The position numbers were made by a program, and so were the translations under genes. Positions 20,465 through 53,388 of a DNA stretch of 64,000 nt are shown here, piece after piece (the first letter of the stretch is position 1; every line of letters begins with the position of its first letter). Origin of the DNA: Gemmatimonadota bacterium (GTDB taxonomy: Bacteria; Gemmatimonadota; Gemmatimonadetes; Palauibacterales; KS3-K002); assembly GCA_039586795.1 (NCBI GenBank), contig JBDHJS010000003.1:16358-80357 (forward strand), given 5' to 3'. The notes below the pieces were generated by a model. It was not told the origin of the DNA and made no database searches. It saw only the letters and a list, made by a program, of their open reading frames with translations.

Positions 20465-22261
20465 ATGATGAAACTCAAGCCAGCCGTCGTGTTCTCTTTG
20501 CTGCTGTTTGCTGGGTACATCTTGTCCGGTTGCGACACCGACATGCAGCACGAGGTCGAGGATTACATCTCACGATACAACGAGCGGATGCAGGGTTTGT
20601 ACTACGAGTCATCCAAGGCGGAGTGGGCATCGAACACTCATATCGTCGAGGGTGACACGACCAACGCCGCGCGAACGCGTGCCGCCAACGAAGCATTGGC
20701 AGAGTTCGTCGGCAGTCCAGAGAACATCGAACGCATCCGGCACTTCCTCGACAATCGGGACCGGCTGACCGAGCTCGAGGTACGCCAGCTCGAGGTAATG
20801 CTGTTTGCGGCGGCAAACCAACCGGGTACCGAGCCGGAGCTGGTCGCGAATCGTATCGCGGCGGAGACCAGACAAGTTGAGACGCTGTTCGGTTTCGATT
20901 TCAAGCTGGACGGTCGATCCATAACGCCAAACGAAATCGACGGGCTTCTGCGAAGTAGCGATGACCTGCGCGAGCGCCTGGCCGTTTGGGAGTCTTCGAA
21001 GGAGGTTGGCCCGGTACTCAAACCGGGGATCATCGAGCTTCAACGGTTGCGGAACGAGACGGTTCGAGCCCTGGGCTACTCCGATTTCTTCGCTTATCAG
21101 GTATCCGAATACGGAATGAGCAGCGAAGAGATGCTGGAGATGACGGGCACGCTGATAGAGCAGCTTCAGCCCTTATATCGAGAGTTGCACACCTGGGCGC
21201 GCTACGAGCTGGCGGAACGCTACGGCGAGCCGGTACCGGACATGATACCCGCCCATTGGCTGCCCAACCGGTGGGCTCAGGACTGGACGGCACTGGTGAG
21301 CGTGGAGGGCCTCGACCTGGACGCCTCGTTGAGTGAGAAGTCGCCCGAGTGGATCGTCGAGCAAGGCGAGCAATTCTATGTCAGCCTGGGCTTCGATGAG
21401 CTGCCGGGCAGTTTTTACGAGCTGTCATCTCTGTACCCGTTGGAACCGGGAGCTGACTATAAGAAGAACACCCACGCGTCGGCATGGCACATGGACCTAG
21501 ACACCGACGTGCGCTCGCTGATGAGCGTGGAGACGAACTCGTACTGGTGGGAAACCGTCCTGCACGAGCTTGGACACGTCTACTACTTCATGAGCTACAC
21601 GAATCCCGATGTGCCGCTGGTCCTACGCGAAGGCGCCAATCGCGCCTACCACGAAGGGATCGGCAGCCTCATCGGGCTCGCCTCGATGCAACGCAGCTTC
21701 CTGGTAAATCGTGGGCTTGTGGAGGCTGACGTGGAGGTCGATCAGGTCGCCCAACTGCTGCAGGAGGCACTCAACTACGTAGTGTTCATCCCGTTCTCCG
21801 CCGGCGTGATGACGCGGTTCGAGCACGCGCTGTACGCCGAGGAGCTACCCGCCGATCAACTCAACGCCCGGTGGTGGGACCTGGTGGCGGAGTATCAGGG
21901 CGTCGTGCCGCCCAATCCACGTGGCGAAGATCATGCAGACGGGCTAACGAAGACACATATCAATGACGATGCGGGTCAGTACTATGACTACGCATTGGCG
22001 AACGCGCTGCTGTTCCAATTGCACGATCACATCGCGAGGGAACTCCTCGAACAGGACCCTTACGACACGGACTATTGGGGCTCCAGAGAAGTCGGCGAGT
22101 TCCTCCACGAACTGATGGCGCCAGGCGCGAGCCGGCCATGGCGCGAGGTGCTACAGCAAACGACCGGTCGCGAACTCGATGCTCAGGCGATGGTGGAGTA
22201 CTTCCAGCCGTTATACGAATGGCTGGTAGAACAGAATCGCGGGCGGCGGCACAGCATATAA
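20465..22261 (+). CDS. M2 family metallopeptidase (angiotensin-converting-enzyme-like peptidyl-dipeptidase), lipoprotein
   Basis: Lipobox ILSGC. HEXXH zinc site HELGHVYY followed by LREGANRAYHEGIGSLIGL, which matches ACE's HEMGH...LRRGANPGFHEAIGDVLAL block. The N-terminus is also ACE-like. Confidence 0.75.
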   Translation: MMKLKPAVVFSLLLFAGYILSGCDTDMQHEVEDYISRYNERMQGLYYESSKAEWASNTHIVEGDTTNAARTRAANEALAEFVGSPENIERIRHFLDNRDRLTELEVRQLEVMLFAAANQPGTEPELVANRIAAETRQVETLFGFDFKLDGRSITPNEIDGLLRSSDDLRERLAVWESSKEVGPVLKPGIIELQRLRNETVRALGYSDFFAYQVSEYGMSSEEMLEMTGTLIEQLQPLYRELHTWARYELAERYGEPVPDMIPAHWLPNRWAQDWTALVSVEGLDLDASLSEKSPEWIVEQGEQFYVSLGFDELPGSFYELSSLYPLEPGADYKKNTHASAWHMDLDTDVRSLMSVETNSYWWETVLHELGHVYYFMSYTNPDVPLVLREGANRAYHEGIGSLIGLASMQRSFLVNRGLVEADVEVDQVAQLLQEALNYVVFIPFSAGVMTRFEHALYAEELPADQLNARWWDLVAEYQGVVPPNPRGEDHADGLTKTHINDDAGQYYDYALANALLFQLHDHIARELLEQDPYDTDYWGSREVGEFLHELMAPGASRPWREVLQQTTGRELDAQAMVEYFQPLYEWLVEQNRGRRHSI

Positions 22262-26759: not shown

Positions 26760-27590
26760 TTACCCGCGATTCGCTTCTTGGTTTCCGTAGCCCTCGGCGT
26801 CCAGCGCCCGTTTCTTGGCTTGCGCAAGAACGGCATCGAACATCGCAGGAGTCAACTTGCCGGTGAACGTGTTCTGTTGGCTGGGATGAAACGCCGCGAT
26901 CAACCTCAAGCCGCTCTCCAGTTCGATATCAACGCCGTGGCCAAACTTCGGAGCGGGCGACGGCGTCGCTACACCTCGGCCACGCAACACACGCAGCACC
27001 TGATCAAACGCGTACTTGCCAAGAGCGAGCAAGACACGCGCTTGGGGCAACATGATATCGAACTCGTTCTCCAGATACTCACGGCAGTTGTCTCTCTCTT
27101 CTGTCGTCGGTTTGTTCGCCGGCGGTGCGCAGCGCACAGCCGCCGTGATGTAGGCGCCCTCGAGTATCAGGCCGTCGTCGCGGCTGGTCGATTCTGGTTG
27201 ACTGGCTAGACCGGCTCTATGGAGTGCGGCGTAAAGGAAGTCGCCGGAACGGTCGCCGGTGAACATGCGACCGGTGCGGTTAGCGCCGTGAGCGGCAGGA
27301 GCGAGTCCTATAATAAAGAGCCATGCCTCCGGGTCCCCAAAGCCCGGCACTGGTTTGCCCCAGTACTCCCAGTCACGGAAGGCAGCTCGCTTCTCTATAG
27401 CGATCTGTTGGCGCCATTCGACGAGTCGGGGGCATCGCTTGCAGCGGGTGACTCGTCTCTGGAGTTTCTCGAGCTTGTCGTTTCGGGCCATGGACGCTTC
27501 GTGAGAGAGTTGTCGGATCATCGGTTCGCCTGGTACTGACGTACTGGCGGACGTTCTCCGTGTCAACGAGCCTTGCGCGATCGGCTCCAT
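26760..27590 (-). CDS. Uracil-DNA glycosylase, family 5 (UdgB-like)
   Basis: Motif A GLAPAAHGANRTGRMFTGD (the Ala variant typical of family 5) plus Cys residues CKRCPRL for a 4Fe-4S cluster. Confidence 0.7.
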   Translation of the reverse strand: MEPIAQGSLTRRTSASTSVPGEPMIRQLSHEASMARNDKLEKLQRRVTRCKRCPRLVEWRQQIAIEKRAAFRDWEYWGKPVPGFGDPEAWLFIIGLAPAAHGANRTGRMFTGDRSGDFLYAALHRAGLASQPESTSRDDGLILEGAYITAAVRCAPPANKPTTEERDNCREYLENEFDIMLPQARVLLALGKYAFDQVLRVLRGRGVATPSPAPKFGHGVDIELESGLRLIAAFHPSQQNTFTGKLTPAMFDAVLAQAKKRALDAEGYGNQEANRG

Positions 27591-27591
27591 C

Positions 27592-28092
27592 GTGTGCTAT
27601 TTCTGCGCCATGATGCTCCTATCAAAGCCGCTAAAGATATCGCTGACGATATCAGCCGCCATGCTGGCAGTAATCGTGATCGTCGACCTGATCACGCCGG
27701 TACCACCGCGCGAACGGCTCCGCGCGATGCGGAACGAACTGGTGGAGCTGAGGGCGTCGGCCGACTCCTGCCGTACGGCGCTGGACAGGGAGGAAACCCT
27801 CCTGCAGGCGAGCGACGCGCGGTTCGATTCGCTACGCAACCTCATAGCGCGTTACGAGGGGATCGACCCACGGGGCGTACCCGCCGACAGCTACGACCTC
27901 TATCTAGAGGCGTTCAACTCGTATAACGAAGGGATCCCGGCACGCGAGGCAGCGGGCGAGACGCTGCAAGCCCACTGGGCCAACTGCACGGTGATCATCG
28001 AGCAGCACAACCTGCTGGCCGACTCTGCCCGTCAGCTGGCCGAGGAGAGCGGCCTGGTTACCGACTCGACCCGCCGGGTACCGGTGCCCTGA
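27592..28092 (+). CDS. Hypothetical membrane-anchored protein
   Basis: ORF with one N-terminal TM helix followed by a helical/coiled region. No recognisable motifs. Confidence 0.35.
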   Translation: MCYFCAMMLLSKPLKISLTISAAMLAVIVIVDLITPVPPRERLRAMRNELVELRASADSCRTALDREETLLQASDARFDSLRNLIARYEGIDPRGVPADSYDLYLEAFNSYNEGIPAREAAGETLQAHWANCTVIIEQHNLLADSARQLAEESGLVTDSTRRVPVP

Positions 28093-28242
28093 CCTCCGCC
28101 CACAACCCGGCGACCCTAGCCGGGTGGCGACTCACTCCGCAGATTGCAGTATGAGGCGCGTGCGTAGCGCCCTCACACATCAGCCGTAATCACCTAGCCT
28201 CAACCGGCCCAGCCCGCTCTGCAGTCGCTCGGCGGGCACGAA

Positions 28243-31200
28243 GTGCCTCTGACGAACACGAGTCAAGAAGACATGAGCGCGAAACTGTGGGATGTGATCA
28301 TCGTTGGCGGCGGCCCAGCCGGAATCACCGCCGCGCTCAGGCTAGCCCGAGAGGACCTGGATATCCTGGTCGTCGAAGCCGCGGTCTACCCCGGAGCCGA
28401 GAACTGGTCTGGAGCGGTGTATTTCGCCGAAAACCTGGCCGACCCTAAGGTCCTCGGAGTGGATGGGCTGGAAGCGGCCCCGTACGAAGGGCGCGTGGTC
28501 AAGCGCGGGTTTTTCTCGTGCAACGGTCTGTCGATGGCCGGGCTGGAGTATGAAAACCCGGAGACATTCAAGCACTGCTATACCGTGCTGCGGCCGGTCT
28601 ACGATCGCTACCTGGCCGAGGTGGCACGTCGGGAAGGCGTCACGTTTTTGACCGAGACGACCGTCGACGGCCTGATCCGACGGAACGACCGCGTTGTTGG
28701 CGTGCATACGGATCGCGGTCCGGTCTACGGCCAGATCGTCTTTTTGGCTGAGGGAGATGCGTCACACCTGGTGAGCAAGGAAGGCTTCGAGGGTGACGCG
28801 GTCCGCGCGAAGAAGAACGGCCAACCGGCGTTCTTGCAGGGTGTGAAGGAAGTCATCCAGCTAGAGCCGGAAGTCATCGAGGATCGGTTCGGAGTAGGGC
28901 CCGGCGAAGCGTGCTGCTACGAGATCTTGCTGAGGAACGGTGTCGTCGACGGAAAGCCAGTCCGCCTGAACATGGCGGGTCTCCTGTACACGAATCGAAA
29001 CAGCGTGTCGATCGGGCTCGTGATGCCTCTGGACAACCTCGCCGAGTATCGCGGGGACTACAACGCATTGATGGAGTGGTATAAGAGCCTTCCACCGATC
29101 GCGCGCCTCATCGAAGGCGGCGAGGCCACCTCGTTCGGGGCGAAGATCATCCGCAGTGGCGGCCTGGCCGAGATGCCGCGGCTGGTCGCCGATGGCGTCG
29201 TGGTGGGCGGAGCGGCAACGGGGATCGGCGTTGACTTTCCGTATCCGAACTTCACGGGCCCGGCCACGGCGATGGGCCGGATCTTCGCCGATGCCGTATT
29301 GAAGCTCCAGTCAGAGGGTGCGGAGCCACGGAGCGGGCAGTTGGAAGAACTGTACGTCCAGCCCTTGAAGGAAACGAGCTACTACAAGGATGTCGACTAC
29401 CTCCGCGATTGGCCCGGCTTCATCGAGCACACCGATGCGCTATTCAGCCGCCAGATCGACCTGCTGAACGGTTCGTCCTACGCAATGACTCGACCGACCC
29501 TCCGCTTTCCACACAGCTGGTGGGAGACGGTGCGGGTGGTGAGCGAGACGATGAAGGGCCGCTGGTCGAAGACACTGAAGGACCTTGCGGGTGGGTCGAA
29601 GGCGCTGCGCATGGGCCGATTGATCGCCAAGCACATGCCGGCGGCCCTGCTGCTGTCGGTCCCCAACACGCTCCTGGCGTTGATGCCGTTCGCTTATGGC
29701 AAGGGGCCAGGCAAGATCAGCCTGAGTTTCTGGGTGGACGGCGAGGAGTCGAGAACCCTCCCCTGGTACAAGCGCTGGTCGTACGCCCGGTATCGGTCGG
29801 CCCTGATGAAGGCAACAGCGATCGTCTACGCGAACGACGGTGTCCCGATCCGGACGAAGCTGGATCGCGCGATTGGCACTCTGCTGCGGCGCTTCTCGCT
29901 ATGGGAAATCGTGCTCGGCGTACTCGGGGTCGCCGTATTCTGGCTAACGCGCGGCCTACAGAAGCTTAGCGACGCGATACGCTATTCCCGTAAGAAGCCG
30001 ACGATCGAAGAACTCACGGCGACCTTCTACGGCAGCTGGCTGACGCGCTGGCGCGCGATGACCGACCTGGCGCGGGCGGCGTCGACGGGCCAGACGCATG
30101 ATGCGAAGCTCGGCGAGATCAGCTATGGCGGCGATGTGGGCTCGCACATCAAGGTGTTCTTCCCACCGGACAAGCCCGGTACGCTCGAAGATCCAAGCCG
30201 GTCGGCGCTCTGGAGCGTGTGCCCGGCGTCCGTCTACCAGATCAACGTCGATCGCACAATGCACGCGTCGGTTGCCGTGAACTTCGAGAACTGCGTGAAG
30301 TGCGAGACGTGCTGGCGAATCGAACCACAGCACGTGGACTGGTCACGGTTCGGAAAGCATCGTCTGACCTATGAAGTGTACACGGACGCCGACGCCTCGC
30401 TGCGGCAGCTTTTATCCGAACGTGAATTGCGTGACACGCCTGAGATAGAGCCGAGCTTTTGGAGCGCCACGCTCACGGAAGCGTGGCCCGTCGGTCACGT
30501 CGAGGCGTCCGACGCGCTACGGAGCGACATCACGAACGCGCGACGCGCCATCGACCGGGCTGCCGCGAAGTGCAGCGAACTGAGCGATAACATCTGGCTC
30601 GGCCCGAGGGTACTGGAGCCTGGCCAGGTCAGCTGGTACATCTCGGCTCTCGAGTACTTCGCGGTACTCGCCGATGAGGCTGCCAGCGTCGCCCTATCCG
30701 AACCGATCGAAGACTGGCTGATCGAGCACGAGTTGGCAGGCGCTCATCTGGAGCTTCTGCAAGCGAAGCGGGACCTGGATCTCGTCACGCGAGGGATCCG
30801 GGAGCATGCGGGCTCCCAGAAGTTCTTCGCCGGCGAGGCCGACGCACGACAGGCCGCCGGTCATCATCTAGCGGGCATGCGAGAGATCATCGATCGCATC
30901 GCGCTGGCCTGCCGCATCCCCGACGACTACGTCGATCCCGTGGCGGAGCTACGGAATCAGGAGCAGGAATCACCGGCGCGCGCCGCGGCCCGTGAGGAAC
31001 TGCGGGAGCATCTCGCGGCCATCTTCGATCGCGGCGCGATCCGGCGGTTGGAAGATGGTGGGTCACCGGAAGGAGCAGAGATCGAGGCTCTGCGCGAGTC
31101 GACGCGGGCGGCTTTGGGGGATGAAACGCAGGGCGCATTCGACAGCTGGGCACCGCTCACGAGGAGCGACATCCTCGGCGAGCTATCCCGCATCGACCCA

Positions 31201-34200
31201 TCGCTCGCCATCCTCGTGGCCGGTCACCTTGAGGGACTCGCGGCTCTCGAGGGTGCAGGAGCTACGGCGAAGGTTATCGGACCGCTCAAGAAGGTCGAGG
31301 TGTTCGTCACCCTGGCCACGGAAGTGGCCGGGCAACCCGGCGACGGCAAATGGAACGGAGCCTTGCCGTTCGCGCTGACGGCGTTGGCGGATCGGTTCGT
31401 TTCCCGAGGCGAAGGGCAGGTCGCCGTATTCGGGCTGAAAAGCAAAGGTGTAAAGGCCAGCATCACGCCGGCGATTGGGCTCACCGGCGCGGCGGCATCG
31501 GAGATCTTGCTCAAAGACGCCAAGCCGATGTGGTCGGGCGACTGGACGGAGGCTGACGAGACTGAACTGTTCGCAGCGCGCGTTCGCGATGCTGCGGCCA
31601 TAGCTCTCGGCTCGGCGACGATACTCACCGAACGGGCAATCGATCACGCGCGCAGTCGCATTCAATTCCCGGACATGTTCCAGGATCTGGATGGCCGCGA
31701 CGGCGTTGGCAAGTTCGGCGCCGTGCGTGCGCACCTGAGCCACATCGAGGCTTCACGGCTGGCCATCGAAACGATACTCAACGACTGCGATTGGACCGCG
31801 GACTCGGATCTCGAGGCGATGGTTGGAAAGGTCGCGGTCACGGATCTCTTCGGCCCCGACATGCCGAGCATCACCTATCGGGCGGGTCAGGTGATCGGCG
31901 GCTCCGCGTTCTCGGAGGAGGACATCTTCTCGAAGGCCTACCGCGACAGCTCGGTGTTCACTCACTACATCCGAGAGAACGCGGAGCTGAACGTGGAGAT
32001 CGGTTCGAGGATATCCGCGGGCGACGGTTCGCTGCTGGCGACGATCGCGCCTGACCTATCGGCGGCGCTGGACGTCGTGGCACGACGACCGATCTTCGAC
32101 TTCGAGGTGAATCGCCTACGCGAGGCGGAGATGCAGTTGGCGGAGAACATGCGCGGCGTGCTCTCTCAAGGACAGGAACCAGCCGTCGCCGAGGTCGTGC
32201 ACGACATCGCCGGCGAGCTGGTGACGCGACTGTATGTGTGGGCGCGCCTCATGGTGCGGGCCTACCGACGCCTGGAGGGCGCGCTCCCCGCCCAGCGTTA
32301 CCTAGAGGCCGTCCAGCTATGGGCGGACATCATAGAAGAGCGTCTGCTGGGCCTCGAGGATGAGCTCGCGCAATCCGCCGCTCGAATCGAACTGGGCACC
32401 GACGCGCTTCAGTTGGACGCCTACCCCGACGAGCCGATCGCGACCAGCGGACTCGACTTCGACCTGGACAAAGACGTCATCAAAGGTGAGGTGAACTACC
32501 GCTCCGGCGATTTCCTCTTGAAGCCGTTCCGCATCGATGAGACCCGATACACGCCCGAGCTACAGTGGGTAGACGATGTCACCAGAAACCACTACGACGA
32601 GTATCTGAAGGAGATCCGGGAGCGCTTCCAGACCGGCAGGTACAAGCCTTCCTTCGAACGGGAAACGGAGCGGCTTCACTGTATTCCTCGTGAGGATATC
32701 GACTGGACAGTGGACCGTGGCTACTTCCGCGTGGTGATCCCGGAGGAGTACGGCGGACAGGGTCGATCCAAAGCCGACTACTACAACCTGTGTCAGATCG
32801 CGAAGCGGCACGGCGACGTAAGTCTTACGCTCACAATCCAAGCCAACACTAGTATCGGGACCACACCAATGCTGCTGGGTCTGGATGAAGTGATAGCTGC
32901 CGAACGCGATCTCGCGGGCGCGGTCGCGAGGGCAGCCGATGTCGAGGCCGCGAAGTCAGAGATCGAAAAGCTGATCGAGATGATGTCGATGCCAGATGTC
33001 GATGCGCTGGCGAAGAAGTACATGGAGATTGACAAGAGCGTCCGCAGCTCGATCGGCAAGAGCAGGATTCTGAAAAAGGTGGTATTCGGAAAGTTCCAGT
33101 CGGCCTGGGGCAAAGCTGGGGCGGCCGGAATGAAGAAGGATCTTGTCGGTTTTCGGAAGGGCCTCGAGAAGGCGGTGGTCGCGCTGGGTGGTTGGCAGGA
33201 GCGAGTCGCAGCCGAACTCGATGAGATGCCGCGGCGTCGTATGGCCCACGAATTCTTCCTGCGGCTGATCTCGTCCCGGATCACGTCGGCCTTCTCCCTC
33301 ACCGAGCCGAGCGCCGGATCAGATACGGCTCGGGTCCGTACGGAGGCGCGCCTCGACTCGCGGAGCGTGCTGACGGATGACGACGGCGTGAAACACTTCT
33401 ATCTGGACGAGGATGATCCGGAAAGCCGTCGCAACCTGGCGGACATGCGACGATTCGAGTTTGACGGGCGCCGGATACTGTATCGGTACAGCGACGACGC
33501 CGATCCTGCTGAAGTCCACTCTCAGGAATACACGTACTCGGAGGACGAGGAGAAGTATCGCTACTTCATGATCGGCGACCGACGGGTCGACATCCACGAC
33601 ATGGCGATCGTGCGTGAGCGTGATGGTGAAGAGGTCTACGAGTTCTTCGTGCTGAACGGCGCCAAGATGTGGATCACCAACGGCCACATCGCCGGCGTCA
33701 ACGCCATCTACGCCCGGACTCCAATGGGGCTCACCGGGTTCATGGTCGATGCGCTGACGGATGGGTTCCTAGTCGGCAAGGACGAGGAGAAGACGGGACA
33801 GCGTGGTTCACCGACGAACGAGATCGGACTCACCAACGTACGCATCCCGCGCGAGTGCATGATCGGCATCGAGGGCCGGGGTCAGGAAAACGCGCTGGAG
33901 ACGCTCAACGTCGGTCGGACGGGGCTGTGTATCTCATCGACGGCCGGCATCGACCAGGCGATCGGCGACGCGACGGCCTACCTGGAAGAGACCGGGCGGA
34001 ATTCGTCAGCCGGAGTGCGCTACCGGTTGGGTCTGACGATGGAGGAGATGTATGCCGTCGAATCGATCGCCTACAACCTGGTCGGGATCTACGACGACAA
34101 GACCAGCGACATGCCGCGCGTGGAGTCATCGATTGCCAAGCTCTTCGGGACGGAAGGACTCCACCGAATGCTCCACTTCCTGGAGCCGGTGTATGGCATC

Positions 34201-36726
34201 GATGGTCAGACACAGCGTTACCGCATCGAGAAGGACCGACGCGACGCTAGGGTGATGACGATCTACGAGGGCACGAACGAGATCCAACAGTTCCTGTTGC
34301 TGAAGGATGTGATCGACATGGTCGGGCCGAGGCTGGACAAACTCGAGGAACTGGACGTCTCGGCTGAAGACTCGGTGTTCAAAGCCGAGGTCGATGCCCT
34401 GCGCGAGATGCACGCTGCGGTCAGGGAACGGGTGAAAGAAACACGTGCGACCTATAAGAGCGCCGCCTGGCAGCGCGCGTTGCTGCAGCCTGTGTTCTTC
34501 CGTCTGGCGCGAATGGTCGCGCTGCTGAAGACAGTGGACAGCGTTCTGCACCGCGCCGACTGGGTGGCGCGCAACCTCACGGCGGACGCGGACGCGTTCC
34601 GTCGGAGTTGGAGCGACAAGGCAGCGCGCGGCTTTGTCGCGAGAGCGCGCCGCGAGTTCATGCGGTTGGCGACGGGCTTTGATCGCGATTTCGAGACCTT
34701 GAAGGCGGGCGGCCGCACCGCCGAGTTGAAGCTGGCGGAGACGCTACTCGACGAAACGGAGATCGCCGCCGCGCACGGAAAGGCGGGCACCGGCGGGATC
34801 GAGAGGTCGCCGATCGATCGAGGTTTGGAGATCGTTGTAGCGCTGGAACGAGCGCCGCATTTGGCGCCGCGACCGCGCGTCATTGACGGCGAGCTGGCCG
34901 AGCACGTGTACGGATTCACGGCGGGAGACCGTCGTGCTCTGTCGATGGCTCTGGCTTTGAAATCGGCGTCGCCGGAGCGGGTCCGTGTGACGCTAGTATG
35001 TGCCGCGCCCGTGGAAGTGGAGGACGCGCTGCGCGCCGGGCTGGCCGCAGGCGCGGACCGGGCAATTCTGATCGACACGCGCGGGGAGTTGTACGAGGAG
35101 CATTCGGTTGCCGACGCGATCACCGGTGTTCTGCGACAACGCAACATCGATCCCGACCTGCTTCTTTCTGGCGCGTCGGAGGACGGCCCCAGCGGGGGCC
35201 GGCTCGGCCTCAGACTCGCGAGCGAATTGGACATCGAATGGGCCCCGAACGTGACCGAGCTGTGGGTGGACGGGAGCACGGCGGTAGTGACCAGCGAACG
35301 GTTTCCCGACAGCCTCATAAAGGCGGACCTGCCTGTTGCCGCATCGGTCGCGGGATCGGAAGGCGAGCCCGCTCCGGAGTTCACGGCCGCCGGTTTTGCG
35401 GAGGCGCTACGCAAAGACGTGGATGCCGTCCCGTTCCCAGACGACGCGGAACGCGCCGACGAGGAGCTAGCAACGACATCAGCACAGGCGACAACTGAGT
35501 CGCATGACGATGCCGGTCGCATCGATCCAGAGCGCGCCGCCGAGCTACTGGTTGAAGTCGGCGACCTGGGAGACGGCTCCGCCGTGCCGACGGGCGAACC
35601 ACATGCGGGAGCCATCGAGTCGGTCAGCGTCGACTCGTTGGATTGGCGCGGGGTGGTCTTCATCGCCGAGATCGAAGACGACAACCTGGTTAGAGACGCC
35701 AGAGCGCCGCTCGAGGCAGCGAGCGGCCTGGCAGAACGATCCTCTCTTCCACTATCGGGTTTGGTATTGAGCGAGCGTCTGTCCGATGACCGCCGTCGAG
35801 CGATCGCCGGACGCCTCGCCGCGCACGCGCCGTTCGGGCAGATCGTTTTCGCAGAGCACGATGCTCTGGGCGACGGCGCCTACCGCGCCTACGTCGAAGC
35901 ATTGGAGAAGCTGGTGGGGCCGGAATCCAGAACGCGCCCGACCTATCTAGTATCATCGCCGTGGCTGGCCGACGCGATGCCACCGCTGGCGGAGGTGCTT
36001 CGTCGATCCGACGTCGACGCGGACGAACTGGCCGGTGTTTCGCGGGTGGAGTTCCGCGACGGCGATGGTGTCGCGTTCGTCCAACCCGCGTACGAGCGTA
36101 AGTTGAGAGCACGACGTCACCTTCCTTACGCCGCTGACGCGATGCGGATCCTATGGTTCGAACCCGAAGTTACGTCGGAGCCAGGGGAAGCGACCTCATC
36201 GGATCCGACGGTAGTAGTGGTCGGCCTCGATCTGGACTACGATCCGCAAACAGATGCCCTGACCGAAGCGCTGCTCGAGGCAAAGAAGGCCCTTGGTGTG
36301 GTGACGTTGGAGAACGCCGAGTTCGTCATCGACGTGGGTGCCGGCCTGGGCTCCGTCGACAATCTGGACACGGTTGTGGAGCCATTGCGCCAAGCGCTGC
36401 TCGAGCTCGGGGCGCCGCACGTACTCATCGGCGCAACCCGCAAGGTGACGATAGATATGAGCTGGCTGCCGGAAGAGCTTCAGGTCGGGCAGACCGGCGT
36501 TCGAGTGAATCCGCGTATCATGATCGCGCTGGGCGTTTCAGGCGCGCCTCAGCACATCGACTGGGTGGGCGATCGCGCGGTGATCTTCGCGTTCAACATG
36601 GATGCGCAGGCGCCGCTGATGACGCTCAACCAGAGACGTGAACAGCCGAAGGTCTACCCGATCGTCGGCAACCTGCTCGAGACCGTCCCCCGCTTCATCA
36701 AGGCTCTGAAGCACGGACGCGATTGA
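28243..36726 (+). CDS. Giant multidomain flavoprotein: ETF-quinone oxidoreductase/FixC-like + FixX-like 4Fe-4S + divergent ACAD-like + acyl-CoA dehydrogenase + EtfB-like + EtfA-like (2,827 aa)
   Basis: Single uninterrupted ORF. Approximate aa positions: 14-400 FAD Rossmann (DVIIVGGGPAGITAAL) with ETF-QO/FixC similarity. 655-700 CP...CVKCETC 4Fe-4S. 900-1330 ACAD-like (ERAIDHARSRIQFP, YRDSSVFTHYIRENAE). 1480-2030 ACAD (FSLTEPSAGSD, MWITNG, IYEGTNEIQQ). 2160-2370 EtfB-like. 2450-2827 EtfA N- and C-domains (IALGVSGAPQHIDWVGDRAVIFAFNMDAQAPL, matching GISGAIQH...AINKD..API). Confidence 0.85.
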   Translation: MPLTNTSQEDMSAKLWDVIIVGGGPAGITAALRLAREDLDILVVEAAVYPGAENWSGAVYFAENLADPKVLGVDGLEAAPYEGRVVKRGFFSCNGLSMAGLEYENPETFKHCYTVLRPVYDRYLAEVARREGVTFLTETTVDGLIRRNDRVVGVHTDRGPVYGQIVFLAEGDASHLVSKEGFEGDAVRAKKNGQPAFLQGVKEVIQLEPEVIEDRFGVGPGEACCYEILLRNGVVDGKPVRLNMAGLLYTNRNSVSIGLVMPLDNLAEYRGDYNALMEWYKSLPPIARLIEGGEATSFGAKIIRSGGLAEMPRLVADGVVVGGAATGIGVDFPYPNFTGPATAMGRIFADAVLKLQSEGAEPRSGQLEELYVQPLKETSYYKDVDYLRDWPGFIEHTDALFSRQIDLLNGSSYAMTRPTLRFPHSWWETVRVVSETMKGRWSKTLKDLAGGSKALRMGRLIAKHMPAALLLSVPNTLLALMPFAYGKGPGKISLSFWVDGEESRTLPWYKRWSYARYRSALMKATAIVYANDGVPIRTKLDRAIGTLLRRFSLWEIVLGVLGVAVFWLTRGLQKLSDAIRYSRKKPTIEELTATFYGSWLTRWRAMTDLARAASTGQTHDAKLGEISYGGDVGSHIKVFFPPDKPGTLEDPSRSALWSVCPASVYQINVDRTMHASVAVNFENCVKCETCWRIEPQHVDWSRFGKHRLTYEVYTDADASLRQLLSERELRDTPEIEPSFWSATLTEAWPVGHVEASDALRSDITNARRAIDRAAAKCSELSDNIWLGPRVLEPGQVSWYISALEYFAVLADEAASVALSEPIEDWLIEHELAGAHLELLQAKRDLDLVTRGIREHAGSQKFFAGEADARQAAGHHLAGMREIIDRIALACRIPDDYVDPVAELRNQEQESPARAAAREELREHLAAIFDRGAIRRLEDGGSPEGAEIEALRESTRAALGDETQGAFDSWAPLTRSDILGELSRIDPSLAILVAGHLEGLAALEGAGATAKVIGPLKKVEVFVTLATEVAGQPGDGKWNGALPFALTALADRFVSRGEGQVAVFGLKSKGVKASITPAIGLTGAAASEILLKDAKPMWSGDWTEADETELFAARVRDAAAIALGSATILTERAIDHARSRIQFPDMFQDLDGRDGVGKFGAVRAHLSHIEASRLAIETILNDCDWTADSDLEAMVGKVAVTDLFGPDMPSITYRAGQVIGGSAFSEEDIFSKAYRDSSVFTHYIRENAELNVEIGSRISAGDGSLLATIAPDLSAALDVVARRPIFDFEVNRLREAEMQLAENMRGVLSQGQEPAVAEVVHDIAGELVTRLYVWARLMVRAYRRLEGALPAQRYLEAVQLWADIIEERLLGLEDELAQSAARIELGTDALQLDAYPDEPIATSGLDFDLDKDVIKGEVNYRSGDFLLKPFRIDETRYTPELQWVDDVTRNHYDEYLKEIRERFQTGRYKPSFERETERLHCIPREDIDWTVDRGYFRVVIPEEYGGQGRSKADYYNLCQIAKRHGDVSLTLTIQANTSIGTTPMLLGLDEVIAAERDLAGAVARAADVEAAKSEIEKLIEMMSMPDVDALAKKYMEIDKSVRSSIGKSRILKKVVFGKFQSAWGKAGAAGMKKDLVGFRKGLEKAVVALGGWQERVAAELDEMPRRRMAHEFFLRLISSRITSAFSLTEPSAGSDTARVRTEARLDSRSVLTDDDGVKHFYLDEDDPESRRNLADMRRFEFDGRRILYRYSDDADPAEVHSQEYTYSEDEEKYRYFMIGDRRVDIHDMAIVRERDGEEVYEFFVLNGAKMWITNGHIAGVNAIYARTPMGLTGFMVDALTDGFLVGKDEEKTGQRGSPTNEIGLTNVRIPRECMIGIEGRGQENALETLNVGRTGLCISSTAGIDQAIGDATAYLEETGRNSSAGVRYRLGLTMEEMYAVESIAYNLVGIYDDKTSDMPRVESSIAKLFGTEGLHRMLHFLEPVYGIDGQTQRYRIEKDRRDARVMTIYEGTNEIQQFLLLKDVIDMVGPRLDKLEELDVSAEDSVFKAEVDALREMHAAVRERVKETRATYKSAAWQRALLQPVFFRLARMVALLKTVDSVLHRADWVARNLTADADAFRRSWSDKAARGFVARARREFMRLATGFDRDFETLKAGGRTAELKLAETLLDETEIAAAHGKAGTGGIERSPIDRGLEIVVALERAPHLAPRPRVIDGELAEHVYGFTAGDRRALSMALALKSASPERVRVTLVCAAPVEVEDALRAGLAAGADRAILIDTRGELYEEHSVADAITGVLRQRNIDPDLLLSGASEDGPSGGRLGLRLASELDIEWAPNVTELWVDGSTAVVTSERFPDSLIKADLPVAASVAGSEGEPAPEFTAAGFAEALRKDVDAVPFPDDAERADEELATTSAQATTESHDDAGRIDPERAAELLVEVGDLGDGSAVPTGEPHAGAIESVSVDSLDWRGVVFIAEIEDDNLVRDARAPLEAASGLAERSSLPLSGLVLSERLSDDRRRAIAGRLAAHAPFGQIVFAEHDALGDGAYRAYVEALEKLVGPESRTRPTYLVSSPWLADAMPPLAEVLRRSDVDADELAGVSRVEFRDGDGVAFVQPAYERKLRARRHLPYAADAMRILWFEPEVTSEPGEATSSDPTVVVVGLDLDYDPQTDALTEALLEAKKALGVVTLENAEFVIDVGAGLGSVDNLDTVVEPLRQALLELGAPHVLIGATRKVTIDMSWLPEELQVGQTGVRVNPRIMIALGVSGAPQHIDWVGDRAVIFAFNMDAQAPLMTLNQRREQPKVYPIVGNLLETVPRFIKALKHGRD

Positions 36727-38248
36727 GCGGGAGGACGCCAAAGCGCCGGGCGAGAAGCCAGAGCAGCGATCCAGCTCCGATGACGACGAACAGGCAACGG
36801 AGCATCGTCCACGTTATGTCCGCACCCAGCCCAACCTCCGACTCCGGAACGAACCGCAGAACAAGGGCGACGGCGAGGAACACGATTGCGTAGGGCGCTA
36901 GGATAGATGCGATGAACGAGGCCGCCCTCACACCCGGCATCTCCAGTGCCCTGATCGCGGCGACCATGGTCAACGCGGAGTACGCCAGATAACCTGCTGC
37001 GGCGCCCCACGCTACACCGACGAGCCCGTACCCACCGAGAATCATGCCGGTCACGGCTCCGCCGGCTATTACGATCGCCGCGACCGTGAGGGCGACCAAC
37101 TGTTTCTGCCTGTTGAGCGATACGAGAACAACTTGCGGCATGCGCGTCAGCACCATGAAGAAGATCGCCGCAATGAGGACCTTCCCGGGAGTAATCGTCG
37201 GCGTGTACCTGGGCAGCAGCCAAACGATCGGCAGGTGAAAGGACAGGAAGAGGAGACCCAGCACCGGGCTGGCGAAATAGCTGAGAACCAGGCTGGGTCT
37301 CGTCAGGAAATCTTGAAGCTCACCGACCTCTTTCACTCTGGCGCTCTTCTCCATGAGGCGAGGATACAGCACGACCGAAACTGCCTCGGGCACCAGCATA
37401 ACGGAAACGACGAGATACGAACCCAGAGCATAGATTCCCATGCTCTCACGTGACATGAATATCCAGACGGCGATCTTGTCTACGTTCCATAATGTGATCA
37501 GCAGAGCGCCTGCAATCATGATCGGGAAGCCGATTCGCAGCAGTTCCCTCAGGGCGTCAAGATTCCACCGTGGACGAACGAACGGCGTGCTTCCTCCGCC
37601 CGCCCATAACAAAGCAGCGGCATATGAAAAGATCACGGCGACCAGAAAACCAGGCAGTCCGTAGCGCAGCGCTGCGAGTACCCCACCGACGCTAGACAGA
37701 AGCGCGAAGCCGACCATGATTCGCCCAGCCTGACCGAACCGCTTCCTGGCTCGCAACTTGACGTGCGCGAACCAATACAGTTGAGCCAGCGCGTGTAAAA
37801 CGGCGAGCATCAGCCATGCAACGCGCAACTCCGTCGACCAACCCCGCAAGAAGGTTAGCACGAATGCGGCGATCACAATCGCAAAGACCGCCGCACTGAG
37901 CATCGAGAACCCGAACACCGTGCTCTCGATCCCGCTCGCCCGCTCCTCGTTTCCAGCGCCCGCCGCATGAGCCACTTCACGAAGCAGCGCTTCGTTAACG
38001 CCTAGTTGTCCGTATTGGAGGAACTGGAGCGCGATCTTTATCTGTGACCAGACACCGAACAGCGCCGGCCCCAGGACCCGCGCGAGCAGCAACCCGCGCA
38101 GCAGGAAGAGGAACTCAGAGAGGTAACGCGCGATGGAATAGTCCGAGAAGTGCGCCCAGACAGACCGTTCGCTATCCGCGAGGTCCAATACCGCGGGCGC
38201 GGTGCGGCCGCCCGTTTCATCGTTAGCAGCAGGGGGCAATTCGGACAT
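36698..38248 (-). CDS. Polysaccharide biosynthesis protein / oligosaccharide flippase (Wzx-like, MOP superfamily)
   Basis: 516 aa with about 12-14 predicted TM helices and N-terminal similarity to Wzx/RfbX flippases. Its 3' end overlaps the giant gene's 3' end by 29 nt (convergent). Confidence 0.65.
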   Translation of the reverse strand: MSELPPAANDETGGRTAPAVLDLADSERSVWAHFSDYSIARYLSEFLFLLRGLLLARVLGPALFGVWSQIKIALQFLQYGQLGVNEALLREVAHAAGAGNEERASGIESTVFGFSMLSAAVFAIVIAAFVLTFLRGWSTELRVAWLMLAVLHALAQLYWFAHVKLRARKRFGQAGRIMVGFALLSSVGGVLAALRYGLPGFLVAVIFSYAAALLWAGGGSTPFVRPRWNLDALRELLRIGFPIMIAGALLITLWNVDKIAVWIFMSRESMGIYALGSYLVVSVMLVPEAVSVVLYPRLMEKSARVKEVGELQDFLTRPSLVLSYFASPVLGLLFLSFHLPIVWLLPRYTPTITPGKVLIAAIFFMVLTRMPQVVLVSLNRQKQLVALTVAAIVIAGGAVTGMILGGYGLVGVAWGAAAGYLAYSALTMVAAIRALEMPGVRAASFIASILAPYAIVFLAVALVLRFVPESEVGLGADITWTMLRCLFVVIGAGSLLWLLARRFGVLPLNRVRASEP

Positions 38249-38374: not shown

Positions 38375-39604
38375 TCAGGAGGGATCGTGAATGACGCCGA
38401 TGAAGAGGATGGTGCCGGAGAAGCGTTCACGGATCGCGAAGAGAAACGGCCTATCGACACGCACAGCCATCGGCGCGCTGGTAACACCCACCTCGACAGA
38501 GGTGACAGCGGCCGCCTCGGTGCCCTCTTCGTTGACATCGACAAAGGTCTTGTGTTTGACTTTGCTGATGAAGAGCTGAGCCTGGTCGTTGATCCTGGAG
38601 AAATCGGCGTTCAGTTCGTCGAAGGCGATCTCCATGCCGAGGGCCTTCAGCGCTTCGTTCAACTCGATCTCGTACTCGAGGGTGAACTTGGGGAGGTACA
38701 CCTCCATTTCAGCGGCCAGCAGCCCGTCGATCCAACCCTGCCATGTGGCCGCGTCAATCGAAGCGACCAGCGAATCGATGTCACGACCACGGTCCGGCAG
38801 AACGATCGTCATGCTATACGCCTTACCGCCATACGGAAGGTCGGCTACAAGAACGCCTTCATCGTAGTAGGATCGCAATTCCGCTTCGCCGCCGTGGGTC
38901 ATCATCGGCACCTGGACCGTACCGCCGTCGGCCAGGGTGAAGACGCCAGGCGCGGTCCGATCCGGATCGAATTGGGTGGTCCAGTTCCCCTTGAAGTAGA
39001 TGGCATTGATGAGGAACATGATGATCTCGGGCGCGATCGCATCGACAATCTCACTGATCCGACCGTTGGTTTTATCGTCTACCCAGCTGTTGATGATCCC
39101 CGGTGCGCCAGGGTCGTCGAAGTCGAGCGTCGCCACCTCGGCGTCGAAGTGCTCGATGTTTACATCGATGAAATCCTGTTCGACGGGAAAGTTCTCACGA
39201 ATCCAGATCGAGTTGGCCAGAGTGAACTGCACGGAAGAGTCGAGGTTAGCAAGAAGATCGATCAGGCTGCGATAGGAGTCGTTTACGTCATCGATCGATA
39301 GCCCCTGTAGCTCGAGCGTCTCTTGCATAGCCTCGAGCGTTGTGCCATCGGCGCCGTTGTATACCATGCCGAGCGCCATGGCGACGCTGAGCGGTGATAG
39401 AAAGATGTTGGCACCAACTTCCTCGCCCTGATGAACTTCGCGGAAGAGCTTGAGGCCGAAGCTGTTGTCCGACTCGATGAGCTGCTCTTCACCCGCTTCG
39501 AGGTCGCGAGGAAGCCCTTCGATCTGCGGATTCTGGATATCTTCGTCGCATCCCAGCGCGACCAGCACCCAAAGACCCGCTACGATAGCTGTGAGTCGTC
39601 TCAT
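38375..39604 (-). CDS. Serpin (serine protease inhibitor) family lipoprotein
   Basis: Lipobox LVALGC. Serpin blocks NIFLSPLSVAMALGMVYNGA and C-terminal PFLFAIRERFSGTILFIGVIHDP; the ~400-aa length fits. Confidence 0.8.
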   Translation of the reverse strand: MRRLTAIVAGLWVLVALGCDEDIQNPQIEGLPRDLEAGEEQLIESDNSFGLKLFREVHQGEEVGANIFLSPLSVAMALGMVYNGADGTTLEAMQETLELQGLSIDDVNDSYRSLIDLLANLDSSVQFTLANSIWIRENFPVEQDFIDVNIEHFDAEVATLDFDDPGAPGIINSWVDDKTNGRISEIVDAIAPEIIMFLINAIYFKGNWTTQFDPDRTAPGVFTLADGGTVQVPMMTHGGEAELRSYYDEGVLVADLPYGGKAYSMTIVLPDRGRDIDSLVASIDAATWQGWIDGLLAAEMEVYLPKFTLEYEIELNEALKALGMEIAFDELNADFSRINDQAQLFISKVKHKTFVDVNEEGTEAAAVTSVEVGVTSAPMAVRVDRPFLFAIRERFSGTILFIGVIHDPS

Positions 39605-46964: not shown

Positions 46965-47447
46965 CGTTTCGGTGCCGGATGCCTGGCTGAGGGTTCTGGC
47001 GGGTAACCATTCCATCCAGCAACAGGGATGCCGCTGGGCCGAGTTTTCCACAAAACGCTGAAAGGCGTTGGAAGATAAGGTGTTTGCGGCACTGGCAGGG
47101 GTCGGTGCTGGAAGTGGGAATGTGGTGTGTAGACGCAGCGCTACAGATCGGCCCCGTAGGCGGGATAGGGTGTGGCTTTGGTCCGACCCTCTAGGGAGGA
47201 CCGCGGTCACGTCGGCTTTACTATTGACATTTCTCTCTTTCATCCGTACTGTTGCATTCCCGCTGCTTCTGCGACGTCGGCTCCACAGTTCGCGTCGCTC
47301 CACGTCGGCCCCATCGCCGCAGCAGGTAAGCGGGCCTACGTAGACTTTGGGCCGCCGGTCCCGCCACGGCTGAAGTTCTCAACGGATCTCACAGGACGTT
47401 CTATCGCCACTTCGCGGTGCGCGATCCTGAAACGTGGGAGGCTCCCG

Positions 47448-48983: not shown

Positions 48984-48995
48984 GCGGAAGATCTG

Positions 48996-50129: not shown

Positions 50130-50150
50130 AGCAGAGGGCTCTCCCGCTCG

Positions 50151-51263: not shown

Positions 51264-51281
51264 AGTTGTGCGATTACGCGA

Positions 51282-52145: not shown

Positions 52146-52420
52146 ACCGGTTCTGGTCGTAAACCGCTGAACGATAGAGGATTACGCTGCCAGAAGCCAC
52201 ACCGCTGTTTCGGCTCTACAACGCCGATTTGGTGCACCCGTGCCACGCGAGGCTTGCGCAAGTCGGCTGCAAAGGCCACAATACGACCGCTGAAACGGAT
52301 GATTCCCTCCGGCAACCGCATTCCCCCGAACGCCCAAGCACGGGACTTTCCGCTTGGCGATGCACCAGTTCTGTAGGATCGCTGACAGCGACCGTTCCCG
52401 TGGTAAAGGCAGGGAAGGAA

Positions 52421-53347: not shown

Positions 53348-53388
53348 CTGATCCTCGAGATGTTAAGCCTGCCTTCAGTCTACTTGCA

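Follow-up and report, generated by a model that had tools for sequence, protein, structure and literature searches.

The window analysed here is a stretch of 64,000 nucleotides from contig JBDHJS010000003.1 of a Gemmatimonadota bacterium (assembly GCA_039586795.1, positions 16,358 to 80,357), and it carries a giant gene that encodes, as one polypeptide, a quinone reductase of the electron transfer flavoprotein-quinone oxidoreductase (ETF-QO)/FixC type, an Fe-S domain, an acyl-CoA dehydrogenase (ACAD), EtfB and EtfA. The listing of open reading frames (ORFs) and their translation place a single ORF on the forward strand at 28243..36726, with 2,827 codons from a GTG and the stop codon at 36724-36726, which bears out the original prediction of an uninterrupted 8.5-kb frame. 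The longest competing ORF overlapping it encodes 410 amino acids (aa). By our own arithmetic, 2,827 stop-free codons at ~63% guanine plus cytosine (~0.028 stops per codon in random sequence) have a probability of ~1e-35, in keeping with the claim that the frame is too long to have arisen by chance. The first in-frame ATG occurs at 28273 (MSAKLWDVIIVGGGPAG; product MSAKLWDV...). Because P0001, a database protein that is 100% identical and 2,817 aa long, begins at this ATG, and its homologues start there too, the true start is probably ATG 28273, 10 codons past the GTG. The predicted size of 2,827 aa is accordingly right for the ORF but probably not for the protein, a likely product of 2,817 aa with a computed mass of ~310 kDa and isoelectric point of ~5.0. 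Throughout, residues are numbered from the GTG at 28243.

The modules occur in the order ETF-QO/FixC, Fe-S, ACAD-like, ACAD, EtfB, EtfA (Table 1). This order had been proposed from the sequence and is confirmed by Pfam, NCBIfam and PDB matches, by profile comparison and by two confident AlphaFold models; the AlphaFold2 (AF2) models were built from an alignment of 27 homologues. The ordered, non-overlapping Pfam matches that had been anticipated were obtained above gathering scores for the flavin adenine dinucleotide (FAD) Rossmann families (aa 17-157), for ACAD N, M and 1, for ETF and for ETF_alpha. All motifs quoted beforehand were likewise located, namely CPASVY (660-665), CVKCETC (684-690), FSLTEPSAGSD (1684-1694), IYEGTNEIQQ (2007-2016), GVSGAPQH (2764-2771) and FAFNMDAQAPL (2782-2792).

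Table 1. Modules of the giant protein, in order along the gene, and its shorter relatives.
Feature	Nucleotides	Residues (aa)	Strand	Basis or character
ETF-QO/FixC-type FAD/quinone-reductase domain	28273..29451	11-403	+	NCBIfam, PDB; VGGGPAG at aa 21-27
All-helical insertion, putative membrane anchor	29452..30192	404-650	+	Hydropathy, AF2 model
ETF-QO-type [4Fe-4S] domain	30193..30402	651-720	+	Cys660, Cys684, Cys687, Cys690; Fer4_ETF_QO
Linker and helical bundle	30403..31074	721-944	+	AF2 model
Pseudo-ACAD	31075..32427	945-1395	+	ACAD alpha/beta/alpha fold, without catalytic Glu
Canonical ACAD	32620..34332	1460-2030	+	Pfam N/M/C, PDB, AF2/Foldseek
Helical C-terminal ACAD extension	34333..34857	2031-2205	+	Like VLCAD, ACAD9, long bacterial ACADs
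EtfB-like domain (ETF domain III)	34858..35442	2206-2400	+	Pfam ETF, PDB, hhalign
Acidic interdomain linker, poorly conserved	35443..35616	2401-2458	+	Composition, conservation
EtfA domain I, diverged	35617..36207	2459-2655	+	hhalign; Gln2614 in place of TRPAFGG Arg
EtfA domain II, electron-transferring FAD domain	36208..36723	2656-2827	+	ETF_alpha, PDB, motifs
Shorter relatives	L083 7153-12069, L084 10001-14263, L082 4120-8298; P0222, P0233, P0225, P0178, P0191, P0183, P0220, P0230			Exhaustive search

The N-terminal FAD domain matches the NCBIfam models PRK10015 (E 2.3e-45) and FixC (E 5.8e-44), both far under the equivalog cutoffs (150 bits versus 610 in the case of FixC), which makes it a homologue of the E. 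coli-type proteins and leaves orthology unsupported. The closest solved structure is 7koe_C, the FixC/EtfC chain of Thermotoga maritima (E 4.4e-30; query aa 16-408 against chain residues 5-391), whereas pig ETF-QO (2gmh_A) is matched in three collinear pieces with an E-value of 6e-14. Between this domain and the Fe-S domain lies an insertion of ~250 aa, modelled by AF2 as all-helical over aa 400-608 (block predicted local distance difference test score, pLDDT, of ~63-90), and a segment scan of aa 400-720 found no Pfam family beyond the Fe-S match. Two hydrophobic helices in the insertion, at aa 467-485 and 551-569, are the most hydrophobic segments of the giant protein. For family counts we used the best 120 of the 482 proteins returned by a homologue search at E <=1e-10. 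In 99 of these 120, the most hydrophobic 19-mer of the whole protein falls at aa 380-720, the span holding the insertion, and 109 have at least one segment inside the insertion with a Kyte-Doolittle value >=1.6. Judging from this hydropathy, the insertion likely anchors the protein to the membrane, as a hairpin or in monotopic fashion. Since the FAD and Fe-S domains must share one side of the membrane, it would cross an even number of times or not at all.

The Fe-S domain is matched by Fer4_ETF_QO at aa 658-700, with 21.7 bits on the whole protein and 25.2 bits on the segment alone (cutoff 24), and its 'vCPAsVY...nCvkCetC...W' pattern aligns with residues 527-570 of pig ETF-QO (2gmh). The four Cys residues listed in Table 1 are nearly invariant in 70 homologues, and no other Cys is conserved in the region; because there are four, one [4Fe-4S] cluster per chain is expected. 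The motif had been called FixX-like. The Fe-S domain is indeed there but is of the ETF-QO type, as evidenced by the single cluster's worth of Cys and the alignment to pig ETF-QO; T. maritima EtfX has two clusters. The domain has pLDDT <50 in the AF2 model that lacks the FAD domain. In the segment that follows, aa 757-935 are modelled as helical with pLDDT mostly 85-96 and have no Pfam match. The whole stretch of aa 721-944 is shortened in a Verrucomicrobial size class (~2,470-2,590 aa), and alignment occupancy is reduced over ~aa 721-1400.

The second of two ACAD folds is canonical. Pfam recognizes Acyl-CoA_dh_N at aa 1464-1544 (27.0 bits, cutoff 22.9), Acyl-CoA_dh_M at aa 1791-1866 (56.0 bits, cutoff 33.3) and Acyl-CoA_dh_1 at aa 1878-2016 (76.7 bits, cutoff 22.4), while the best PDB matches are ACAD9 (E 4.5e-31), CarC (E 1.5e-30) and VLCAD (E ~3e-27). 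A Foldseek search with the AF2 model returns VLCAD and ACAD9 as the best folds (E ~1e-13). The motifs FSLTEPSAGSD, KMWITNG (1808-1814) and IYEGTNEIQQ, the last of which contains Glu2009, are invariant in 70 homologues, and the IYEGT is aligned to the IYEGT of CarC, 2dvl and 3nf4. Two conserved inserts set the domain apart: ~145 aa of helix after the N-domain (~aa 1545-1683), with no Pfam match in aa 1545-1700, and ~75 aa of extra strands in the beta-domain (~aa 1715-1790). The domain belongs to no substrate-specific equivalog of NCBIfam, the best being Bacillus FadE (NF058590) with 138 bits (cutoff 600). It continues into a C-terminal extension, with helices modelled up to aa 2130 and no Pfam match at aa 2030-2215, and the best folds are correspondingly long ACADs, namely VLCAD (2uxw, 3b96), ACAD9 (8phe), 3owa and 2z1q (E ~1e-13), with 720-760 aligned columns for 2uxw, 3b96, 8phe and 3owa.

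The first ACAD fold is far less evident from its sequence. It is matched below threshold by Pfam Acyl-CoA_dh_1 (E 1.6e-3, 19 bits versus 22.4), its six PDB sequence matches are all ACADs and all non-significant (E 0.13 to 1), and a self-BLAST of protein quarters gives only a marginal match to the canonical ACAD (E 0.18). Alignment of its profile with the canonical C-domain by hhalign yields an E-value of 5e-4 with re-aligned sub-regions and 0.005 from the fast global alignment. The fold is nevertheless settled, because a Foldseek search with a model of aa 400-1400, from which the canonical ACAD was excluded, matched ACAD9, VLCAD, FadE1 and FadE5 at E ~5e-11 to 1e-10 and target-normalised TM-scores of 0.57-0.65. 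The original prediction of an ACAD-like domain at this place thus stands as to fold, but the domain is a pseudo-enzyme: in the PDB and hhalign alignments Ile occupies the position of the catalytic Glu (THYIREN versus RIFEGTN in VLCAD; IFEGTN or IYEGTN in ACADs), in a column that is not conserved in the family. We refer to it as the pseudo-ACAD.

Two other motifs are invariant in the pseudo-ACAD, SRIQFP (aa 1138-1143; NRTQFG in VLCAD) and GQVIGG (aa 1215-1220; GQVIGGSAF versus IQIMGGMGF in VLCAD). Both are missing from the canonical ACAD, which reads LEETGRN at the position of KERKQFG in CarC and EPVYGIDG at that of VQIHGGYG. As far as these motifs go, the two folds show complementary degeneration, in that the pseudo-ACAD lacks the Glu and the catalytic ACAD lacks R-x-Q-F and Q-x-x-G-G. 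The Arg, Gln and Gly-Gly of these motifs are presumably those that reach over the dimer interface to the FAD of the other subunit, as in MCAD and VLCAD. Because the losses complement each other, the tandem folds most likely pair as an intramolecular heterodimer that has one FAD and one active site. An AF2 model of 1,196 residues containing both is confident as one body, with pLDDT 86.2 and a predicted TM-score (pTM) of 0.86. The pseudo-ACAD is among the best-conserved regions of the protein (blocks 1121-1160 and 1201-1240 score 0.75-0.76, against 0.82-0.86 per column in the catalytic core) and is under selection, with no sign of decay. It also contains an extra loop, 'SRIQFPDMFQDLDGRDGVGKFGAV' (31654-31716, aa 1138-1158), which is inserted relative to ordinary ACADs (VLCAD 'NRTQFGEKIHNFG'). 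The loop follows the pattern QFP..F.D..GRD...KFGAV, and a set of 70 homologues shows no variation at its R, Q, F, P, F, D, K, F and G. That a domain without catalytic activity should keep a loop so strictly suggests a dedicated function, perhaps in docking or electron transfer.

The remainder of the protein is an electron transfer flavoprotein (ETF) arranged as EtfB followed by EtfA. Pfam ETF matches aa 2223-2392 with 60.7 bits, the PDB matches are 1o94_C (E 1.5e-7) and 5ol2_B (E 3.6e-7), and the family profile aligns with genuine EtfB at 98.8% hhalign probability (E 8.8e-17). The reference for genuine EtfA and EtfB was Olsenella massiliensis, where the EtfA gene adjoins bcd-etfB (locus L077), the only usable pair from 18 Firmicute ACAD loci. 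The nucleotide loop of the EtfB-like domain has diverged, reading SGASEDGPSGGRLG here versus GRQAIDGDTAQVG in known EtfBs (5ol2_B, L077). An acidic linker had been placed around aa 2370-2450. This holds for ~aa 2396-2460, where 65 aa include 17 D/E but 3 K/R and column conservation drops to 0.36-0.38, but not for aa 2370-2395, which is the diverged C-terminal 'recognition-loop' region of EtfB. Both domains of EtfA are present, as had been claimed. Domain I goes undetected by Pfam in a scan of aa 2390-2690, but the family profile of aa 2445-2827 aligns by hhalign with residues 1-362 of the 365 of genuine EtfA (probability 99.8%, E 1.4e-27), and domain I also aligns with the family's own EtfB-like domain (E 3.7e-5). 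Domain II is matched by Pfam ETF_alpha at aa 2689-2772 (62.1 bits) and by 5ol2_A (E 2.4e-15), 5ow0_A, 6fah_A, 1efp_A and 1efv_A in the PDB. Its FAD motifs, QVGQTGV (2747-2753), GVSGAPQH and FAFNMDAQAPL, are canonical and nearly invariant in the family.

The fusion is not peculiar to this genome. More than 110 of the best 120 homologues are full-length (2,470-3,036 aa, 33-69% identity) with the same Pfam content, and column occupancy of the full-length alignment is near-complete from end to end. The gene occurs in metagenome-assembled genomes (MAGs) of Gemmatimonadota (64-70% identity), Acidobacteriota, Planctomycetia/Gemmataceae, Verrucomicrobiia, Nitrospirota and Acidiferrobacterales/Gammaproteobacteria. 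A genome scan, with one genome per GTDB species, provided 62 best loci, and 33 related loci were analysed in detail. As to whether relatives are fused or split, all 33 have one giant ORF (2,010-3,041 aa from the first Met), and domain order is unchanged even in gammaproteobacterial copies that are ~31% identical. Because the architecture is conserved across homologues and loci in at least six phyla, selection must be maintaining the fusion. In an exhaustive HMMER search of 1.84 billion proteins, aa 400-1400 recovered 146 clusters at 50% identity, of which ~45 exceed 2,200 aa by a count of listed lengths and most others look like fragments. The family is phylogenetically broad (at least six phyla) yet not large.

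A giant ORF can also be produced by a frameshift, a lost stop or a mis-assembly that joins separate fixC, fixX, acd, etfB and etfA genes, and the sequence probably comes from a MAG. A few related MAG loci do have a broken gene: it is split into two or three ORFs at five other loci (L005, L029, L036, L053 and L058), for instance into 1,013 and 1,837 aa in 'Ca. Kutchimonas denitrificans' (L005). These splits are most likely frameshift or assembly errors themselves. Against an artefact stand the independent full-length homologues, which share order and linkers, the 33 intact loci, and the 90% cluster of the protein itself, in which 2,817 aa are found on each of three separate contigs (210, 82 and 37 kb). 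Between the modules lie helical domains that are conserved and modelled with confidence, unlike translated intergenic DNA, and the order QO, pseudo-ACAD, ACAD, EtfB, EtfA is atypical for an operon. Given the conserved full-length homologues and related loci, we reject the artefact, the probability of which we regard as negligible.

Partial versions of the protein also exist. Complete genes encoding 1,397-1,713 aa share the QO module, insertion and Fe-S domain included (34-40% identity to aa 11-710), together with part of the pseudo-ACAD, and in some the ACAD C-extension and an EtfB-like domain are present too. All those examined lack both a canonical ACAD and the EtfA FAD domain. In three cases, P0222 (L083), P0233 (L084) and P0225, the gene immediately follows fadB; P0222 and P0225 have fadA further upstream, and P0222 has fadD as well. 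The relative at L082 is broken. Such proteins may serve as scaffolds to which a free ACAD and EtfA are drawn by heterodimerisation, or they may be evolutionary intermediates, and they suggest a stepwise route toward the full fusion.

Genes for beta-oxidation adjoin the giant gene in some genomes. A thiolase and a FadB-type enoyl-CoA hydratase/3-hydroxyacyl-CoA dehydrogenase are next to it on the same strand in 8 of the 33 loci, from at least three phyla (L019 from Nitrospirota, the unclassified L027, L046 from Gemmataceae, and L049, L050, L056, L057 and L062 from Acidiferrobacterales). Six of the eight also have an AMP-forming acyl-CoA synthetase. In these loci a fadD-fadA-fadB operon has no other acyl-CoA dehydrogenase gene, and the giant gene stands in that position.

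What the tools used here show is which modules are present, in what order and context, and how well they are conserved; from this we infer direction, cofactor content, shuttle motion and anchoring. Because all modules are in order with their catalytic and cofactor motifs intact, we read the protein as an acyl-CoA:quinone oxidoreductase, and the ordered modules in one polypeptide lend support to the earlier notion of a hard-wired chain from acyl-CoA to quinone. The FadE step is suggested because of the thiolase/FadB/acyl-CoA synthetase operons and the shorter relatives that follow fadA-fadB, and a fatty-acyl substrate because the nearest ACADs by sequence and fold are the long-chain types VLCAD, ACAD9 and Bacillus FadE. 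We thus consider it likely, on sequence and models, that the product is a membrane-anchored, self-contained, non-bifurcating acyl-CoA:quinone oxidoreductase that carries out the FadE step of beta-oxidation.

In the proposed mechanism, the canonical, VLCAD-like ACAD, with Glu2009 as base and its own FAD, would convert acyl-CoA to enoyl-CoA. The pseudo-ACAD would pack on it and lend its Arg, Gln and Gly-Gly contacts in trans to the ACAD FAD. The tethered ETF, consisting of the EtfB-like base, EtfA domain I and a mobile, FAD-bearing EtfA domain II, would take single electrons from the ACAD flavin, and the ETF flavin would pass them by way of the single [4Fe-4S] cluster to the FAD of the N-terminal ETF-QO/FixC-type module. 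This module would then reduce membrane quinone, with the hydrophobic helical insertion holding the protein on the membrane. Each chain would be expected to contain three FAD and one [4Fe-4S], and to show no reactivity with NADH and no reduction of ferredoxin. The steps have precedent in the path of T. maritima EtfABCX, from the electron-transferring FAD (ET-FAD) through Fe-S and the quinone-reductase (QR) FAD to menaquinone, with EtfC membrane-associated (PMC10734219), and in the canonical route from ACAD through ETF and ETF-QO to quinone (PMC12042025). It is also conceivable, and we put it forward only tentatively, that the family is a distinct enzyme class, in which the pseudo-ACAD/ACAD heterodimer and the helical inserts form a fixed cradle while the EtfA flavin domain swings between the ACAD flavin and the Fe-S cluster, and which is graded so as to include the scaffold relatives. 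If true, the complete hand-off from ACAD to ETF to ETF-QO to quinone would gain, in the giant protein, its first model that is open to structural work and locked in stoichiometry, and the protein would be the principal FadE of several poorly cultured phyla.

Several observations weigh against the assignment as a membrane-anchored acyl-CoA:quinone oxidoreductase. The Pfam match to ETFQO_UQ-bd is weak (E 0.013, 16.5 bits versus a cutoff of 27.7), the anchoring is putative and drawn solely from a hydropathy window, and the heterodimer with its trans contacts to FAD is read from motifs and pTM. The canonical ACAD also carries its two large inserts. The EtfB nucleotide loop is degenerate, being gapped in ~50 of the 120 homologues and variable in others, so that the ETF base may or may not bind AMP or fold like a normal one. 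The beta-oxidation context comes from only 8 of the 33 related loci; within the 64-kb window nothing is lipid-related, and the gene stands as a monocistron among unrelated genes. Neighbours at Acidobacteriota, Planctomycetota and Nitrospirota loci include MutY, prephenate dehydrogenase, amidohydrolase and Asp-tRNA synthetase, whose presence is lineage synteny with no functional link; those in Acidobacteriota are unrelated housekeeping genes. Finally, no isolate is found among the 62 best genome loci, and all homologues with a named source come from MAGs or metagenomes.

Other functions have therefore to be weighed. The protein had alternatively been proposed to be a covalently linked module for flavin-based bifurcation, of the FixABCX/EtfABCX or Bcd-EtfAB type. 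The ETF base would then hold a second, bifurcating FAD reduced by NADH, from which quinone or enoyl-CoA would receive one electron and ferredoxin or flavodoxin the other. The affinities of the modules are compatible with this, since the quinone-reductase module has its nearest sequence relative in the bifurcating complex of T. maritima (FixC/EtfC, 7koe_C, E 4e-30), the best PDB matches for EtfA and EtfB include the bifurcating systems 5ol2, 6fah and 4kpu, and the acryloyl-CoA reductase ETF subunit and mft_etfA are among the top ETF-type NCBIfam matches. The residues required are another matter. The Arg of TRPAFGG in the genuine EtfA of L077, which we take to be R140 of T. maritima, is replaced here by Gln2614, and only 15 of 118 family members have Arg in this column (T43, S24, R15, M11, L5, A5); the register is fixed in the profile alignment by the conserved neighbours P-A-F/Y-G-G-K. 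In T. maritima, R140 lies beside N5 of the bifurcating FAD and is essential for bifurcation (PMC10734219). The EtfB loop for the AMP/FAD phosphates, with its replaced and often gapped sequence, argues in the same direction, as does the one Fe-S cluster motif, which is the number in non-bifurcating ETF-QO, whereas EtfX has two (PMC10734219). A chain that combines an ACAD with a quinone reductase fits a donor and an acceptor, not two competing high-potential acceptors, and the operon partners are genes of beta-oxidation. An acyl-CoA donor at ~-10 mV is, moreover, too weak to drive ferredoxin reduction (textbook potentials). The absent Arg and the variable or gapped EtfB loop speak against the bifurcating module, which we regard as very improbable.

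The same chain might instead run in reverse, as an enoyl-CoA reductase driven by (mena)quinol, or serve another acyl-CoA derived from amino acids, aromatics or steroids. Specificity is not readable from the sequence data for an ACAD with two unusual insertions, all NCBIfam ACAD matches are far under equivalog cutoffs, most loci, the window included, have no beta-oxidation neighbours, and menaquinol (-74 mV; PMC10734219) could in principle reduce enoyl-CoA at ~-10 mV (textbook potentials). Where operons are present, however, they hold the classical degradative set of thiolase and FadB, usually with an acyl-CoA synthetase, and the nearest ACADs are of the fatty-acyl types already named. The host phyla are, in addition, mostly respiratory heterotrophs, and we consider reversal or another substrate unlikely. 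Lastly, the ETF part could be a structural relic, with direct transfer from the ACAD flavin to the Fe-S cluster and QO flavin, or the pseudo-ACAD could have a catalytic or regulatory role of its own. A relic would account for the strong divergence of the EtfB nucleotide loop and EtfA domain I, and relatives of 1,400-1,700 aa still occur in fadAB operons although they have neither the canonical ACAD nor the EtfA flavin domain; but EtfA domain II is among the most conserved regions (0.71-0.77), its FAD motifs nearly invariant, which contradicts a relic. The strong conservation of the pseudo-ACAD and its invariant loop might indicate a separate role, against which stands the absence of Glu at the MCAD-type base position. 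Glu is presumably absent from the IVD/LCAD-type position as well, going by the hhalign alignment. Either version strikes us as rather improbable.

Read as an acyl-CoA:quinone oxidoreductase, the giant protein resembles several known systems in part. The mitochondrial/alphaproteobacterial chain (MCAD:ETF 1t9g and 2a1t; ETF-QO 2gmh) has the same types of module and, we infer, the same electron route: the Fe-S motif aligns with that of ETF-QO, the EtfA FAD domain is canonical and the ACAD resembles VLCAD, C-terminal helical extension included. That chain, however, consists of three enzymes from four genes rather than one chain of 2,817 aa, and its ACADs are homodimers or homotetramers, whereas here a pseudo-enzyme makes up one half of the ACAD pair. 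By score, the QO FAD domain is nearer to FixC than to mitochondrial ETF-QO (108 versus 54 bits), the hydrophobic helical insertion is absent from both FixC and mitochondrial ETF-QO, and the EtfB nucleotide loop is degenerate. T. maritima EtfABCX/FixABCX (7koe), an NADH:ferredoxin/menaquinone oxidoreductase whose FixC/EtfC is the closest solved homologue of the QR domain, shares the logic of ET-FAD, Fe-S, QR-FAD and menaquinone as well as a membrane-associated QR, but it has four subunits, two [4Fe-4S] clusters and no ACAD and bifurcates from NADH, in contrast to the one cluster motif, the ACAD pair and the Gln2614-for-Arg exchange of the giant protein. Stable ACAD:ETF assemblies are known in Bcd-EtfAB (5ol2) and CarCDE (6fah), and CarC and the Bcd of 5ol2 are among the best ACAD matches (E ~1e-30 to 3e-29), as are their ETF subunits among the best ETF matches. 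These assemblies are non-covalent, soluble and bifurcating, act reductively (enoyl-CoA with NADH) and have no quinone reductase. A precedent for the pseudo-ACAD is found in mycobacterial FadE26-FadE27 and ChsE4-ChsE5, in which a partner without catalytic base and FAD site of its own still aids the FAD site of the other, so that there is one flavin per heterodimer. These are separate polypeptides in alpha2beta2 tetramers that act on CoA esters of steroid side chains, whereas the giant protein has its ACAD folds in tandem in one chain, as part of a larger redox fusion.

Fusions among ETF proteins have been described as well. In SaETF of Sulfolobus acidocaldarius, EtfB precedes EtfA in one polypeptide, as here, but it is an ETF alone, bifurcating, with two FADs and separate partners (PMC12042025). 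The same source terms the B-A fusion an 'expected discovery', and lists N-terminal ferredoxin fusions (ferredoxin-EtfA) and a butyryl-CoA reductase containing EtfA domain II; its passages on ETF fusions describe no ACAD-ETF-QO fusion. A full-text literature search, with incomplete coverage, found no published description of one, in agreement with the earlier statement that no characterised protein is known to have such an architecture. Sequences of the giant family are already public under generic names such as 'FAD-binding protein', 'acyl-CoA dehydrogenase family protein' and 'electron transfer flavoprotein-quinone oxidoreductase', so that the family is new only in lacking a description or characterisation, and all of the chemistry is of known kinds. 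Under such labels, metabolic reconstructions of abundant soil and groundwater lineages would miscount FadE, EtfAB and ETF-QO functions. Alternation of the mobile ETF flavin domain between a dehydrogenase and ETF-QO, and the docking of ETF on ETF-QO, are known only in parts, from individual complexes, and a natural covalent 1:1:1 assembly would be an attractive target for cryo-EM and kinetics. For protein evolution, the family offers complementary degeneration of a duplicated enzyme fold within a fusion and a modular series of partial fusions, and pathways engineered for beta-oxidation or reverse beta-oxidation could be made simpler with a self-sufficient acyl-CoA:quinone module.

In the window the giant gene stands alone. 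Upstream, on the opposite strand, are genes of the uracil-DNA glycosylase (UDG) family (26760-27590) and the AsmA family. The gap of ~680 bp between the UDG-family gene and the giant gene (27591-28272) holds a 166-aa ORF on the forward strand (27592-28092) that has no Pfam match, and a promoter/terminator scan found no sigma-70-like promoter match upstream of the giant gene. On the other side, a convergent polysaccharide-biosynthesis/flippase gene (36698-38248, reverse strand) overlaps the giant ORF at its 3' end by 29 nt (36698-36726). Because the convergent ends overlap in this way, there is no room for an intergenic terminator. Serpin, peroxiredoxin and other genes follow further downstream.

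Some neighbours recur. A DNA glycosylase gene is found upstream in three phyla, of the UDG family here and MutY-like (HhH-GPD and NUDIX_4) at L010 (2051-3229, Acidobacteriota) and L045 (4950-6065, Planctomycetota), which is probably a coincidence. The serpin gene (38375-39604, reverse strand; Pfam Serpin E 4e-112) has counterparts near the giant gene at other Gemmatimonadota loci, L003 (19751-21274) and L007 (12822-13742). Four tandem serpin paralogues occupy 17535-23252 of L001, and a serpin lies beside the broken shorter relative at L082 (1830-2834). Bacterial serpins are uncommon, and the linkage may be lineage synteny. Elsewhere in the window, a 598-aa Peptidase_M2 protein, a homologue of angiotensin-converting enzyme (20465-22261, forward strand; E 7e-97), precedes a 587-aa protein that contains a Big_2 domain. 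Peptidases of this type are known from bacteria but are not common. A region of exopolysaccharide type at 44028-58164, unrelated to the giant gene, contains two large proteins resembling Wzz/GNVR chain-length determinants or tyrosine kinases (44028-47303 and 53389-56226, reverse strand) and two sigma-54-dependent response regulators (47172-48983 and 56611-58164, forward strand).

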